From the NCBI GenBank assembly GCA_021325135.1, contig JAJPHT010000015.1:181320-245319 (forward strand): a stretch of DNA of 64,000 nucleotides, written 5' to 3'. A program made the translations under genes and the position numbers. Shown piece after piece: positions 4,713 to 31,703 of the stretch. This stretch comes from Pseudomonadota bacterium. GTDB taxonomy: Archaea > Thermoplasmatota > SW-10-69-26 > JACQPN01 > JAJPHT01. The notes beneath the pieces are model-generated. The model made no database searches. It was not told where the DNA came from and saw only the letters and a program-made list of their open reading frames with translations. How positions within the stretch are numbered: the first letter of the stretch is position 1; every line of letters begins with the position of its first letter.

Positions 4713-4848
4713 GGCCGCCGGAGGCGGTAACGGGGTTTGGGCTTTTCCGAGGGAGGGGCGTTCCCTCCTTGTCGGATGAAGACGGAAATCAGGGCCATCG
4801 GCTTCCGCCGGCCTTCGGGCCGTCGGGCCGATGGTCCTGGGAGAGCGC

Positions 4849-5394
4849 ATGAAAAGCGAGATCAGGACCATCGGCTTCGACGACGCCCCGTTCACGCGCC
4901 CCGACGGCCGCGTCCCCGTGGTGGGCGTCCACATGCGCGGCTCGACCCGCGTGGAGGGCATCCTGGCCACGGACGTGCTGCGCGACGGAGGCGACGCCAC
5001 GGCCCGCGTCGCGCGCTGCGTCGCCGGGTCGGGCCTGCGCGGCACCAAGGCGATCCTCCTGGACGGGGCCTCCTTCGCGGGGTTCAACGTCGTGGACCTC
5101 GACGGGCTGGCGGAGGAGACGGGCGTCCCCTGCATCGCGTTCACCAAGGGCGTGCCGGACTACGCGGCCATCCGCGCCGCGCTGGCCAACGTGCCCGACC
5201 CCGAGGCCAAGTGGGCGCTCATCGAGCGGCGCCGCACCGCGACGCTCCCCACGGCGACCTCGCCCATCACCGTCTCGTGGGCAGGGGATGTGGACCAGGC
5301 GCGCGTTGCGGAGATCCTTGCTCTCACGACGGCCCACGGCCTCGTGCCCGAGCCGCTGCGCGTGGCGCACCTCGTGGCCAGCGTCATGCGCTAG
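4849..5394 (+). CDS. DUF99 family protein (endonuclease V-like)
   Basis: IRTIGFDDAPF, DGGDAT, LLDGASFAGFNVVD, PEPLRVAHL. Confidence 0.9.
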   Translation: MKSEIRTIGFDDAPFTRPDGRVPVVGVHMRGSTRVEGILATDVLRDGGDATARVARCVAGSGLRGTKAILLDGASFAGFNVVDLDGLAEETGVPCIAFTKGVPDYAAIRAALANVPDPEAKWALIERRRTATLPTATSPITVSWAGDVDQARVAEILALTTAHGLVPEPLRVAHLVASVMR

Positions 5395-16506: not shown

Positions 16507-16824
16507 ATGTTCTGTCCCAACGACAAGGCGATGCTCAAGCCTGTGAACGGGGTGCTGACGTGCCCGAAATGCGGGTACACGAAGCAGGCCGTCGCGGGGC
16601 AGAACGTCGTGCGGAGCAAGGCCGTCGAGGACGTCCACAAGTCGGTCATGGACGACTCGGCGCAGAAGGTCAGCCTCCTGCCCACGACCAACGAGTACCA
16701 GTGCGAGAAGTGCGGCAACCACCTCGCGTACTACTACATGCGCCAGACGCGCAGCGCGGATGAGGCCACGACGCGCTTCCTGGAGTGCACCAAGTGTGGC
16801 CACAAGTGGAGGGAATACCGGTGA
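16507..16824 (+). CDS. tfs: Transcription factor S (TFS/RpoM)
   Basis: Two Zn ribbons and QTRSADE acidic hairpin, ends CTKCGHKWREY. Confidence 0.93.
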   Translation: MFCPNDKAMLKPVNGVLTCPKCGYTKQAVAGQNVVRSKAVEDVHKSVMDDSAQKVSLLPTTNEYQCEKCGNHLAYYYMRQTRSADEATTRFLECTKCGHKWREYR

Positions 16825-16876
16825 GCGAAGCGAACCGGTTTCCCTACACTGAAGCCGGACCGCAGTCCGGCTGGAA

Positions 16877-17314
16877 GTGGAGGGAATACCGATAGCGTCG
16901 CCCGAGCTTCGCCTCGCGGGGTCGGTGCTCCACCTTCCGGACACCGCGGGCGTCTTCGTGATCGCGTGCCGCTTCATGGGGACCACCGCGCATCCCTTGG
17001 GCGCCGTGCTCTACGTGGGGGTCGCGGAGGACATGCGGCGCCGCGTGCTCTCGCTCCTCTCCGGGGGCAAGTCGGGGCTCCACGCGCCGCTGCGCGAGCT
17101 GCACGAGGCCGGCGGCCAGGTGGACGTCCTCTACGTCGAGGTCAAGGGCGCGGGGAAGATGCCCGGGCTGGAGGCCGCCCTCGTGCAGGAGCACATGCAC
17201 CGCTCCGGGACGAAGCCTGCGTGGAACCGCGGGCCCGCCCGCACGAAGCCCTCCCCCGAAGCCTTGGCGACGGCGGAGCACATCCTGGACGCGCTGCGCA
17301 TCCTGCCGCGCTGA
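16877..17314 (+). CDS. GIY-YIG-like nuclease domain protein
   Basis: GVFVI...LYVG.AEDMRRRV...LEAALV...PAWN. Confidence 0.6.
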   Translation: MEGIPIASPELRLAGSVLHLPDTAGVFVIACRFMGTTAHPLGAVLYVGVAEDMRRRVLSLLSGGKSGLHAPLRELHEAGGQVDVLYVEVKGAGKMPGLEAALVQEHMHRSGTKPAWNRGPARTKPSPEALATAEHILDALRILPR

Positions 17315-27807: not shown

Positions 27808-27938
27808 GCGCCTCCCCGTTTCCTTCTCGTCACGTCTTGACGCGACGAGAAGGACGACACGCCCGCCCCCCGTGACCCCCCGCGTCCGCCAGCCCCTTCT
27901 CCAAACCTTAAGACGGGATGGGGCGCCTCCCCGGCCTC

Positions 27939-28871
27939 ATGCACGCCGAGGCGGAGTCCCCCTGCACCGTGGGCAACTTCGGCCCCGGCTTCGACGTGCT
28001 CAGCCTCGCCCTCGCCCGGCGCGGCGACAAGGTGTGGGTCCGCACGGCGGAGGCCGACAAGGTCACGGTGCGCGGGCCCGGCCACGAGCGCGTCCCCACC
28101 GAGTGGGCGCGCAACTCCGCCTGCGCGAGCCTCGACCACCTGCGCAAGCTCACCGGCCGCGCCGAGCCGCTGGAGGTCGTCATCGAGAAGGGCATGCCCC
28201 CCGGCAGCGGCCTCGGCAGCAGCGCGTCCTCCAACGCCAGCGCGGTGCGCGCGTTCGCCCGCCTATGGGGTGTCGCGCTCTCGCCCTTGCAGGCGCTGGA
28301 GGCCGCCGCCGCGGGCGAGGCCGTCGCCACGGGGAGCGCGCACACGGACGACGTGGCCGCCGCGCTCTTCGGCGGGCTCACCGTGGTGGGCGGGAAGGGC
28401 CCGGACGCCGTGATCCGGCTGCGCCCTCCCCCTCTGCATCTCGTCGTCGCGCGCCCCGAGGTCGACCTCCCCACGCGGGAGATGCGCCGCCTCATCCCGG
28501 ACGCGCTGCCCAAGGCCGCCGTCGTGGGCAACCTGAGCAACGTCGCGCGCATCGTGCACGCCTGCCACCGCGGCGACGCGGCCATGCTCTGCCGCGCGCT
28601 GGAGGACGGCATCTCGCGCCCCTACCGCGCGCCCCGCGTCCCCCTCTTCGAGGAGGCGCGCCAGGCGGCCCTCGCGCAGGGCGCCGAGGCCTTTTTGCTA
28701 TCTGGGTCGGGCCCCGCCATGATCGCGGCGATGCCCGCCGAGAAGGACCCCCGCGCCGTGGAGAGCGCCATGCGCGACGTCTTCGTCAAGGCCGCGCTGG
28801 ACGCCGAGGTGTTCACGACGCAGCCGCTCCCGGAGGTGAAGGACCCTGCGATTCCGCTGCATCCGCTGTGA
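27939..28871 (+). CDS. thrB: Homoserine kinase
   Basis: NFGPGFDVL, PGSGLGSSAS GHMP motif, SGSGP; CCTTAAG TATA-like upstream. Confidence 0.92.
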   Translation: MHAEAESPCTVGNFGPGFDVLSLALARRGDKVWVRTAEADKVTVRGPGHERVPTEWARNSACASLDHLRKLTGRAEPLEVVIEKGMPPGSGLGSSASSNASAVRAFARLWGVALSPLQALEAAAAGEAVATGSAHTDDVAAALFGGLTVVGGKGPDAVIRLRPPPLHLVVARPEVDLPTREMRRLIPDALPKAAVVGNLSNVARIVHACHRGDAAMLCRALEDGISRPYRAPRVPLFEEARQAALAQGAEAFLLSGSGPAMIAAMPAEKDPRAVESAMRDVFVKAALDAEVFTTQPLPEVKDPAIPLHPL

Positions 28872-30003
28872 CCGCGACTATCCCCTCGCGCAGGTGCGCT
28901 ACCGCTGCGAGTGCGGCGGCCTCCTGGAGGTCGAGGCGGACTGGCGCTGGCGCCCCACGGAGGCGCGCGGCCTGTGGCGATATCGTTCCCTCCTCCCCAC
29001 GCTGGACGAGGCGCCGCCCGTCACGCTCCAGGAGGGGGGAACGCCCCTCGTGAGGTGCGAGCGCCTCGCGGCGTGGGCCGGCGTGCGCGAGCTGAGCGTC
29101 AAGGTCGAGGGCGCGAACCCCACGGGCTCCTTCAAGGACCGCGGCATGACGGTGGGCGTCACCCTCGCGCGCAGCCTCGGCATGAAGGCCCTCGCGTGCG
29201 CGAGCACGGGCAACACCAGCGCGTCCCTCGCAGCGTATGGCGCGCGGGCCGGGCTCCCCGTGAGCGTCCTCGTCCCCGCGGGCAAGATCGCGGCCGGCAA
29301 GATGGCGCAGGCCCTCGCCTTCGGCGCCAAGGTGATCGAGGTGGAGGGCGGCTTCGACGAGGCCATGTCCCTGGTGGAGCAGCTTTCCGCCGACGGCCAC
29401 GTCTACCTCCTGAACTCCCTCAACCCGCTGCGCCTTGAAGGGCAGAAGACGCTCCTCTTCGAGGTGCTGGAGGCGGCCTCGCCCGACCGCGTCGTCTTCC
29501 CCGTGGGCAACGGCGGCAACGTCAGCGCCGCGCACAAGGCCATCCGCGAGGCCAACGCCACGGGCCTCTCCCGCGCGACGCCCATGCTCACCGGCGTCCA
29601 GGCCGAGGGCGCGGCGCCCCTCGCCTCCGGAAGCTATCACCCTGTGGACAAGGCCGAGACGCTGGCCACCGCCATCCGCATCGGGCGCCCGGTCAACGCC
29701 GACAAGGCCCTGCGCGCCGTGAAGGAGACGGGCGGCGCGTTCGCCAAGGTCAGCGACGCGGAGATCTTCGACGCGCAGCGCCGCCTCGCGCGGGAGGAGG
29801 GGCTCTTCGTCGAGCCCGCCAGCGCGGCGCCCCTTGCGGGCCTTCGCAGGCTCGTGGAGTCCGGCGTCGTGGACCGCTCCGAGAGCGTGGTGCTCGTCGC
29901 GACGGGGAACGGCATGAAGGACCCCGACGTGGTGTCGCGCTACGCGTCCCCTCCGTTGCGGACGAAGGCCGATCTTCCCTCTCTTCTGAAGGTGCTATCG
30001 TGA
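28846..30003 (+). CDS. thrC: Threonine synthase (CTG start inferred)
   Basis: NPTGSFKDRG, ASTGNTSAS, PVGNGGN, EPASAA; N-terminal CIRC..CECG ribbon needs a start at CTG 28846. Confidence 0.93.
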   Translation: MRFRCIRCDRDYPLAQVRYRCECGGLLEVEADWRWRPTEARGLWRYRSLLPTLDEAPPVTLQEGGTPLVRCERLAAWAGVRELSVKVEGANPTGSFKDRGMTVGVTLARSLGMKALACASTGNTSASLAAYGARAGLPVSVLVPAGKIAAGKMAQALAFGAKVIEVEGGFDEAMSLVEQLSADGHVYLLNSLNPLRLEGQKTLLFEVLEAASPDRVVFPVGNGGNVSAAHKAIREANATGLSRATPMLTGVQAEGAAPLASGSYHPVDKAETLATAIRIGRPVNADKALRAVKETGGAFAKVSDAEIFDAQRRLAREEGLFVEPASAAPLAGLRRLVESGVVDRSESVVLVATGNGMKDPDVVSRYASPPLRTKADLPSLLKVLS

Positions 30004-30010
30004 TCGACAA

Positions 30011-30110
30011 GGGTCCAAAGAACGCGACGAGCGCCACGAGCGCAAAGGACGCGACGACGGGAAACATCGCGACCTTGGCGCTCTTCGCGCTCGTCGCGTT
30101 CTTTGGACCC
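30011..30110. repeat. Long palindrome with 9-nt periodicity between thrC and the ACT gene
   Basis: Perfect 24-bp IR 30011-30034 / 30087-30110 plus imperfect inner stem. Confidence 0.85.
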
Positions 30111-30133
30111 CTGGCCAGGGAGGTGACGTTCAG

Positions 30134-30631
30134 GTGAAGCTCGACATCCTCGTGGAACTCCGGGACTCTCCAGGCCAGCTCAGCCAGGCCCTCGCCACCG
30201 TGAGCCGCTTCGGAGGCAACGTCATCAGCGTCCTCCACGAGCACGGCAAGCGTCGCGGCGACTGGGTCCCCGTGCGCATCGTGCTGGAGATCCCCAAGGA
30301 GGGGGAGGAGCCGCTGGTCAACGCGCTCAAGGCCGAAAGCCGCGTCGTCTCCGTGGGCGGCGCCAGCGCGACGATCCCCTTCGCGTTCCTCCTCCTGGGG
30401 CACGTCTTCGAGTCGCACGTGCAGGAGATCACCGACGCCGTCTTCGCCGCGGGCGCCGAGGTGCGCCGCTTCAGCGCGGAGATCGCGAGCCGCGAGGCGC
30501 CCAGCGCGGCCCTGGTGGAGATCGCGGCGGGCAACGCCGAGACGCTCCAGGCCGCCCGCGAGCGCGTGCAGGAGATGGCGCGCGCCAAGGGGCTTCTCAT
30601 GATCGAGGCCCTGGGGGGCGCTCCCGAATGA
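30134..30631 (+). CDS. ACT-domain regulatory protein associated with homoserine dehydrogenase
   Basis: ELRDSPGQL..GGNVISVLH, LLGHVFES; GGAGGTGA SD. Confidence 0.85.
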   Translation: MKLDILVELRDSPGQLSQALATVSRFGGNVISVLHEHGKRRGDWVPVRIVLEIPKEGEEPLVNALKAESRVVSVGGASATIPFAFLLLGHVFESHVQEITDAVFAAGAEVRRFSAEIASREAPSAALVEIAAGNAETLQAARERVQEMARAKGLLMIEALGGAPE

Positions 30632-30716
30632 GCCGCATCCTGCTCGCTTCGGCCGAAGCCTCTCCTCGCGGCCTTGCGGCCGCTCGTCGGGATCGGCCTC
30701 GCTCGGAGGATGCGTC

Positions 30717-31703
30717 ATGAGCCGCATCCTCCTCGCTGGGCACGGCAACGTGGGGAAGGCGTTCCATGAGCTTCTCCTGGAGGAGGCCCCGCGCCTCGCG
30801 GCCCTCCTGGGCGAGGCGCCCAAGGTGGTGGGCGTGCTGCGCCGCAGCGGCGCGTGGCTCGACGAGAACGGCGTCGGCGTGGGCGCCACGCTGCTCTCGC
30901 GGCGGCAATCGCTCTCCGTCGTGGACGCGCTGGACAAGGTGCGGCCCGACGTCTTCGTGGAGCTGACCACCAGCAACCTCCAGACGGGCGAGCCGGGCGC
31001 TTCCTACATCCGCGCGGCGCTGGAGCGCGGCATCCCCGTCGTCACGGCCAACAAGGGGCCCCTCCTGCGCCACTACGAGAGCCTCACCACGCTGGCGAAG
31101 AGGAAGGGCGTGCCGCTGCGCTTCGAAGGCACGGTGGCAGGCTCGATCCCCACGCTCAACCTCCACGAGTTCACCCTGGTCGGGAACCCGGTCACGCGCT
31201 TCGACGGCATCCTCAACGGCACGTCGAACTACATCCTCACGCGCATGGCCGAGGAGGGGCTCGCCTTCGCGGACGCGCTCAAGGAGGCGCAGGAGCTTGG
31301 CTACGCCGAGGCGGACCCCACGAGCGACGTGGGCGGCCACGACGCGGCGGCGAAGCTCGTCATCCTCGCCAACCACGTCCTGGGCGTGCCCCTGTCGTTC
31401 GAGGACGTTCAGCGCGAGGGGATCGAGCGCATCAGCGCGGCCGCCATCCGCCTCGCCGCCAAGGAGGGCTACGCCATCCGGCTCATCGCGACCGCGGACG
31501 CCGCCACGCGGCAGGCCAGCGTCGCGCCGCGCCTCGTGCCCGTGGACTCCTCCCTCAACGTGCGCGGCAGCCTCAACGTCGTGCGCTTCGCCACCGCGCA
31601 CGCGGGCTCGTTCACCATCAGCGGCAAGGGCGCGGGCGGCCGGGAGACGGCCACGGCGGTCCTCAGCGACGTCATCCACGTCCTGCGGGGGCGAACGACC
31701 TAG
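30717..31703 (+). CDS. hom: Homoserine dehydrogenase
   Basis: GHGNVG, VVTANKGP, GILNGTSNYIL, AEADPTSDV, GKGAGGRETA. Confidence 0.95.
   Translation: MSRILLAGHGNVGKAFHELLLEEAPRLAALLGEAPKVVGVLRRSGAWLDENGVGVGATLLSRRQSLSVVDALDKVRPDVFVELTTSNLQTGEPGASYIRAALERGIPVVTANKGPLLRHYESLTTLAKRKGVPLRFEGTVAGSIPTLNLHEFTLVGNPVTRFDGILNGTSNYILTRMAEEGLAFADALKEAQELGYAEADPTSDVGGHDAAAKLVILANHVLGVPLSFEDVQREGIERISAAAIRLAAKEGYAIRLIATADAATRQASVAPRLVPVDSSLNVRGSLNVVRFATAHAGSFTISGKGAGGRETATAVLSDVIHVLRGRTT

Follow-up and report, generated by a model that had tools for sequence, protein, structure and literature searches.

The window, a stretch of 64,000 nucleotides (nt) from contig JAJPHT010000015.1 of a 94%-complete Thermoplasmata assembly (G000), holds a threonine operon. 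Pfam and NCBIfam models identify thrB, thrC, a gene for an ACT-domain protein and hom, which encodes homoserine dehydrogenase. The ACT-domain gene adjoins hom in all the relatives examined. Its product is probably the regulatory partner of the dehydrogenase, and the two proteins are probably the regulatory and catalytic subunits of one enzyme. The junction between these two genes is the subject of this analysis. The beginning of hom is found there twice, and the two copies are connected by an open reading frame (ORF) of 30 codons. The local target sequence is called T, its upstream and downstream direct copies are T1 and T2, and T' is an inverted copy that lies between the core of the intervening segment and T2 (Table 1). 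The junction was compared with those of the genomes G001 to G004, G006, G007, G011, G018 and G020 and of two metagenome contigs, L060 and L061, the only informative additional junctions that came from scans of metagenomes and species genomes with hom.

Table 1. Features of the threonine operon and of its two expanded junctions, in window coordinates.
Feature	Positions	Strand	Evidence or remark
thrB	27918-28871		first listed gene of the operon
thrC, threonine synthase	28894-30003	+	TIGR00260, 299 bits (cut-off 167); PALP domain
First putative relay ORF, 45 codons	30000-30137	+	ORF list; reads across the palindromic repeat element
Palindromic repeat element	30008-30113		47-nt arms, 89% complementary; repeat search and blastn against the genome
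ACT-domain protein, 165 residues	30134-30631	+	PF01842, 25 bits, slightly below the cut-off of 27; conserved position beside hom
T1, upstream target copy (ACT stop and first 21 nt of hom)	30628-30648	+	
Putative relay mini-ORF, 30 codons	30628-30720	+	ATGA overlaps with the ACT stop and the hom start
Core hairpin repeat	about 30646-30704	+	blastn, nhmmer and alignment; match to covariance model R1, 83 bits
T', inverted copy of nt 1-16 of hom, imperfect (lacks 2 nt)	30706-30719	+	
T':T2 hairpin (predicted)	30706-30732	+	10 bp, 8-nt loop holding the AUG, -19.4 kcal/mol
T2, downstream target copy, the real hom start	30717-30737	+	
hom, short-form homoserine dehydrogenase lacking an ACT domain of its own	30717-31703	+	PF00742, PF03447; NF004976, 279 bits (cut-off 205)

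The direct copies, ATGAGCCGCATCCTGCTCGCT (T1) and ATGAGCCGCATCCTCCTCGCT (T2), begin 89 nt apart and match at 20 of 21 positions, the sole difference (CTG/CTC) being synonymous. With up to three mismatches allowed, the 21-mer is found at these two sites only in the 64 kb, and none of 100 dinucleotide shuffles gave two matches. The TGA of the ACT gene (30629-30631) overlaps the first ATG as ATGA (30628-30631). The frame that opens here encodes MSRILLASAEASPRGLAAARRDRPRSEDAS and ends with a TGA (30718-30720), which overlaps the ATG of T2, again as ATGA (30717-30720). As judged from the alignment, the second ATG is the true start of hom because MSRILLAGHGNVGKAF aligns with the N-termini of all orthologues. 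A preliminary description of this DNA, made without database searches, had reported the duplication with its one synonymous difference and a mini-ORF coupled at both of its ends, and both observations were reproduced.

The same description had proposed that an inverted copy of the hom start doubles as a Shine-Dalgarno (SD) motif and pairs with hom codons, and this agrees with what is found in T'. The segment GGAGGATGCG (30706-30715) is complementary at ten of ten positions to CGCATCCTCC (30723-30732, nt 7-16 of hom). Because codons 5 and 6 of hom are CTC CTC, their inversion in T' reads GGAGG, which begins 11 nt before the hom ATG and is held in the predicted T':T2 hairpin. The fold has a z-score of -3.7 and carries the AUG inside its loop. 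The complete region 30600-30760 (161 nt) folds no better than its shuffled versions (z = -0.86), so that the local 10-bp hairpin alone stands out.

A duplication of this kind could be created by mis-assembly of a repeat. The core is indeed a dispersed repeat, and the unitigs of some sequencing runs stop at it (run X2, records 9 and 11). However, Logan contigs of run X1 (soil, 2017) cover positions 30466-30869 with no differences, and those of run X4, a mine metagenome of 2024 from a separate study, cover 30514-30778, also with no differences. Single contigs from two studies span both copies unchanged, and the joined, insert-free form was not seen in the Logan contigs. The chance of an assembly artefact is practically negligible. 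Absence of the duplication from reads had been named beforehand as the observation that would count against the preliminary description; the duplication is present in contigs of two independent studies.

The 68 nt between the direct copies hold a core of ~52 nt, arranged as CGGCCGAAGCCTCTCCTCGCGGCC-loop-GGCCGCTCGTCGGGATCGGCCTC, which recurs at seven other loci of G000 with identities of 88-94%. Two stems are formed in the core, GGCCGA/TCGGCC on the outside and GCGGCC/GGCCGC on the inside. The sequence of the inner stem varies among the copies while its pairing is kept, and the copy on C12 has no inner hairpin. Convincing copies were identified by the covariance model R1 in the same genus only: eight or nine in G000, four or five in G002 and one in G003. 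In the G003 copy (L032, G003:C101:3308-3367) the outer stem is changed in a compensatory manner to GGACGA/TCGTCC, evidence that the hairpin as such is maintained. An Rfam search of positions 29900-30900 in E-value mode returned no family for the core, the only matches being weak, microRNA-like ones to the palindrome at 30023-30098. Among the R1 matches there was no larger element that carries the core.

The flanks of the core copies have a recurring layout, T - core - T' - (short hairpin) - T, in which T is 10-40 nt of local sequence. On C3 (G000:C3:12849-13053) T is 36 nt long and takes in the final 19 nt of a tRNA(CAT) gene, and its length on C18, C23, C33 and C12 is 40, 19, 11 and 10 nt, respectively. 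On C17, T' and T form a perfect 35-bp pair. A footprint in G002 duplicates the last four codons and the stop codon of a thermosome-like gene, and further footprints are located at tRNA 3' ends in G002 (L046, G002:C45) and in G003 (the L032 copy). For the three core copies situated directly behind tRNA genes, the duplicated sequence is 14-36 nt from the tRNA 3' end. The target duplications seen overall are 10, 11, 14, 15, 19, 21, 36 and 40 nt long. The duplicated start and the SD-bearing inverted copy at hom are thus explained by the ordinary footprint of the repeat (T, core, T', T), and they very probably originated by insertion of this genus-specific hairpin repeat. The preliminary description had read them as an arrangement that makes initiation of hom depend on ribosomes arriving through the mini-ORF. 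The idea of a relay gained support from the comparison with relatives given below, whereas the duplication and the inverted SD copy are attributed to a dispersed repeat and not to a purpose-built device.

The tRNA-end copies in G002 and G003 carry two additional nested hairpins. The direct copies of T are often identical (36 of 36 positions on C3 and 40 of 40 on C18) and the inverted copy between them is clearly imperfect, which is unexpected if all three arose together and drifted equally.

As had been predicted for orthologous junctions, a plain overlap of the ACT gene and hom is found in a number of relatives. The overlap is ATGA in G003, G007 and L060, GTGA in G011, TGATG in G006 and 8 nt long in G018 and G020. 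Two of these, G003 and L060 (whose hom is 89% identical), represent empty sites: both have the plain ATGA and the same hom start, and neither the core nor another hairpin is present at their ACT/hom junctions. The expanded junctions measure, from start to start, 89 nt in G000, 116 nt in G002, 110 nt in G001, 113 nt in G004 and 230 + 56 nt in L061, where two successive frames are joined through TTGA, ATGA and GTGA. All six expanded segments have a length of 2 mod 3 and an open frame, with a start that overlaps the upstream stop and a TGA that overlaps the next start, each overlap being a 4-nt NTGA. The six inserts cannot be aligned to each other, those of the relatives are unrelated to the core, and the encoded peptides have nothing in common. 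What is conserved is thus the frame alone. Upstream of hom, every relative has a GGAGG-like motif, positioned either within the ACT gene or within the putative relay.

The probability that an insert is open by chance was estimated by shuffling at 0.29-0.82 per insert. Multiplied by 1/3 for the length class, these values give a joint probability of 1.7e-5 if all six inserts are independent. In the hom tree, L060 with its plain junction branches outside the pair G000 and G002, and G001 and G004 are sisters. This topology implies at least four to five separate events, for which the multiplied values still amount to about 1e-4.

Several details of the relatives' inserts may be added. The second frame of L061 (Ga0070713_100430506, 536-860), MSRILLAGHGAADRREAQP*, opens with a copy of the hom start in which 20 nt are identical to the upstream copy of the window, and the real hom start of this contig is recoded in AT-rich codons (GTG ACC GGA CGA ATA CTA CTT). 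The spacers of G002, G001 and G004 (loci L002, L004 and L005, respectively) are hairpins, the arms of which consist of tandem 7-10-mers: CACGAAGG three times, CCACGGAGGG twice and TCGCGTCT three times. The tandem-arm hairpins have no relationship among themselves or with the core.

The junction between thrC and the ACT gene of G000 is also expanded. It contains a palindromic repeat as an insertion of 134 nt, across which the 45-codon ORF runs. The overlaps of this ORF are GTGA at either end, its GTG meeting the stop of thrC and its TGA the GTG start of the ACT gene. The arms of the palindrome occupy 30008-30054 and 30067-30113, and the ~115-nt repeat is found at 31 loci in the genome with 87-93% identity. 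Six relatives (G002, G003, G007, G011, G006 and L061) have a plain thrC/ACT overlap, which is ATGA, TTGA or TGATG, and in G004 a 65-nt insert is bridged by a putative relay likewise. That relaying is a property of the ~115-nt palindromic family was considered and rejected, as only 3 of the 31 loci bridge two genes with both overlaps.

An overlap of 4 nt is the commonest spacing of same-strand genes in this genome, and GGAGG has its peak 15 to 11 nt before starts. In Haloferax volcanii and Escherichia coli, strict coupling was found for 13 of 14 overlapping pairs, and hardly any coupling or reinitiation was left across gaps of about 20 nt (PMC6728339, PMC10666635). Since gaps have this effect, an insertion of 89 nt would uncouple hom from its probable regulatory partner, unless ribosomes can be conducted over it, as a frame overlapping at both ends would allow. 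The following course of events is proposed. The ancestral ACT/hom overlap would have been ATGA, translated by termination-reinitiation. A hairpin repeat of ~52 nt would have inserted at the overlap and left the 21-nt T, which begins with ATGA, on both of its sides, with T' separating the core from the second T, and both genes would have stayed intact. T' would have converted the CCTCC of hom into GGAGG and, by pairing with hom codons 3-6 or with T1, would place the SD sequence and the AUG within a stable hairpin. Ribosomes that finish the ACT gene would resume at the former junction ATGA, read 30 codons across the core and the hairpin, terminate at the second ATGA and begin anew on hom. Such a passage is possible since the 89 nt that the insert contributes are 2 mod 3 in length and contain no in-frame stop. 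The hairpin may block independent initiation, and the relaying ribosome would open it. The mini-ORF would then be a relay that preserves the coupling across the gap, and its peptide would be irrelevant. From these arguments we infer the translation of the relay, the strict dependence of hom on it, the role of the hairpin and the route of insertion.

The functional reading is preferred because relay frames have been retained repeatedly and independently. On the sequence comparisons, it is likely that the relay ORF preserves the termination-reinitiation coupling between ACT and hom, and the combined explanation, insertion of the repeat followed by relaying, is given a probability of about 0.68. 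A number of observations weigh against it. The hom gene has its own well-placed GGAGG and might initiate by itself should the hairpin breathe. Taken alone, the relay arrangement of this one insert has a probability of about 0.23 by chance. The relatives are few and their events are partly dependent, G001 and G004 being sisters, as are G000 and G002. In G001 the thrC/ACT junction carries an insert of ~110 nt that no complete relay bridges. Relay-compatible spacings were only modestly in excess, 26 versus 10, when the whole genome was surveyed in a crude manner, and this survey is confounded because any TGA creates an NTG and start calls are uncertain. An insertion at 4776-4878 duplicates a gene start without forming a relay, yet that gene follows no coupled partner. 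The use of SD sequences was judged from motif positions over the genome, as the 3' end of the 16S rRNA, and with it the anti-SD sequence, is missing in the assembly. Among the runs listed with this locus none is RNA. As for the insertion step, the 94%-complete genome gave no match to the Y1 transposase (PF01797), which was matched in control genomes, nor to Cas1 (PF01867), and none to reverse transcriptase (PF00078), the last result being weak since the genome is incomplete.

The junction might also be a neutral scar, in which the target duplication saved both genes, hom is initiated de novo at the GGAGG of T' and the open frame is a coincidence. The length class and open frame of one insert have a chance probability of about 0.23, GC-rich inserts are often open in all three frames, and a GGAGG 11 nt before the ATG falls within the genomic SD window. 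Moreover, the first ATG of the start-duplicating insertion at 4776-4878 is outside the relay frame. However, a coincidence would have to be repeated, because frames with 4-nt overlaps at both ends are found in six of six ACT/hom expansions and two of three thrC/ACT expansions, in unrelated sequences. De novo initiation would have to take place at an SD sequence and an AUG that are predicted to lie inside a hairpin of -19.4 kcal/mol. The ACT gene and hom overlap in every insert-free relative, so that their coupling appears to matter. A neutral scar is considered unlikely.

Two other explanations assign a function to the RNA itself. According to one of them, the region is a regulatory switch, in which T1:T' or T':T2 pairing alternates and the mini-ORF senses the supply of an amino acid like the leader peptide of an attenuator. 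The operon is one of amino-acid biosynthesis, and two mutually exclusive structures, T1-core-T' (-45.8 kcal/mol) and T':T2, are indeed predicted. Nevertheless, the SD sequence is sequestered in both of them, leaving no on-state. The peptide has no Thr, a single Ile and no run of Met, and a leader-peptide attenuator was rejected as it lacks a run of codons for a regulating amino acid. The repeat generates the same layout, as its generic footprint, at unrelated genes and at tRNAs, close relatives lack the insert, and the 161-nt region as a whole does not fold better than chance. A switch is thus very improbable. The other explanation is excision of the insert from the RNA in the manner of an archaeal bulge-helix-bulge intron. 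Removal of one 89-nt unit would restore the ancestral ATGA junction in the mRNA, and some copies of the repeat are found at tRNA genes, where archaeal introns occur. These copies are situated behind complete tRNA genes, however, and not within them. The predicted T1:T' helix has a one-strand 2-nt bulge and an internal loop instead of two 3-nt bulges separated by a 4-bp helix, and such an intron was rejected on this ground. Splicing would also make selection for the open relay frames of the relatives needless, and removal at the RNA level is considered extremely improbable.

Functionally, the closest known case to the proposed relay is the mycobacterial interspersed repetitive unit (MIRU). As described in the review PMC12548453 with reference to Supply et al. 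1997, this repeat is mobile, its insertions are at start codons, and it has an internal ORF coupled to the gene by -4 nt. Both are short dispersed repeats between co-directional genes, with an ORF that overlaps both neighbors by -4. The present repeat differs from MIRU in being archaeal and in having a single core instead of a tandem array of 40-100 bp units, and its insertion also duplicates 21 nt of the target and adds an inverted copy. The two are regarded as unrelated in sequence, the core having no match in Rfam. Furthermore, the putative relays of the relatives cross different inserts, so that it is the frame that recurs and not the ORF of one element. If the relay reading is correct, the MIRU principle, a repeat with its own coupled ORF, extends from mycobacteria to archaea.

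The junction has the ATGA or GTGA overlap and the SD sequence within the upstream frame that are characteristic of coupled overlapping pairs (Huber et al. 2019, 2023; PMC6728339, PMC10666635), among which two-subunit enzyme pairs are an enriched class. It differs from them in that a non-coding relay frame of 30 codons links one overlap to a second. The published coupling studies covered direct pairs and not a natural relay across an insertion (PMC6728339, PMC10666635). Similarity also exists to the leader ORF of E. coli iraD (PMC5574718), in which the product of the short ORF is irrelevant and its translation opens or feeds the downstream start. The iraD-type ORFs are located in 5' leaders and have their own SD sequence, whereas the present mini-ORF is intercistronic and is proposed to be started by reinitiation. 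The separate insertions at this one junction, at least four to five in number, have all been kept in the frame class that can hand over ribosomes, in agreement with the laboratory result on gaps of ~20 nt. They would amount to comparative evidence from nature, in an uncultured archaeal lineage, that the coupling of a regulatory/catalytic pair is under selection. For genome annotation, short frames within operons that overlap their neighbors at both ends deserve attention, and a duplicated gene start should raise the suspicion of an element footprint before that of regulatory design.

The insertion footprint merits a study of its own, and the mechanism of insertion is a more novel question than the relay. 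The core resembles repetitive extragenic palindromic (REP) sequences, bacterial interspersed mosaic elements (BIME) and MITEs (miniature inverted-repeat transposable elements) in being a small, GC-rich hairpin repeat at gene boundaries, of low copy number and restricted to a lineage. A MITE was rejected, as the target duplication is variable (10-40 nt) and accompanied by an inverted target copy, and there are no fixed terminal inverted repeats. A REP element or REP doublet (REPIN) with its REP-associated tyrosine transposase (RAYT) was rejected for want of an IS200-like transposase of the Y1 family, and casposon-type integration for want of a gene of the Cas1 family. Retroelement insertion was set aside on the weaker evidence of the PF00078 search in the incomplete genome. 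To our knowledge, a variable target duplication with an inverted copy around a conserved hairpin fits no mobile element.

The order direct, inverted, direct is that of the tandem inversion duplications of Salmonella. It is shared, in the form T1, T', T2, with ODIRA (origin-dependent inverted-repeat amplification; PMC4689423), which also has hairpin-forming sequence at the turns. This order is expected from a hairpin-capped 'dog-bone' intermediate or from snap-back of a nascent strand (PMC4689423). The products of ODIRA measure kilobases as opposed to tens of bases here, and no replication origin is contained in the present insert. In addition, ODIRA uses pre-existing inverted repeats, whereas the conserved hairpin at hom is imported, being absent from the empty sites of G003 and L060. 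Snap-back of a DNA end after addition of a hairpin would yield both the order of the footprint and the variable length of T. It is tentatively suggested, as a possibility that is more doubtful than the insertion itself, that T-hairpin-T'-T insertions are the product of an undescribed process of DNA moving or copying, in which a hairpin is added at a DNA end, the strand snaps back and 10-40 nt of local sequence are copied, and that at coupled junctions only the relay-forming inserts survive. If this were true, the junctions would constitute a natural, repeated experiment on archaeal termination-reinitiation.

In a genome-wide scan for the direct-inverted-direct layout, matches in the reversed-sequence control outnumbered those of the test, owing to GC-rich noise, and the top matches were clear cases. 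Within the window, the layout is seen at the gene start MKSEIRTIGFDD (4776-4878). A second copy of the first 10 codons of this gene lies 73 nt upstream, an inverted copy and two hairpin caps separate the direct copies, and the upstream ATG is out of frame. At 16804-16895, the last codons and the stop of a tfs-like gene (KWREYR*) are found twice, with an imperfect inverted copy between them, and the turns are formed by a GCGAAGC mini-hairpin and a GCCGGAC/GTCCGGC hairpin.

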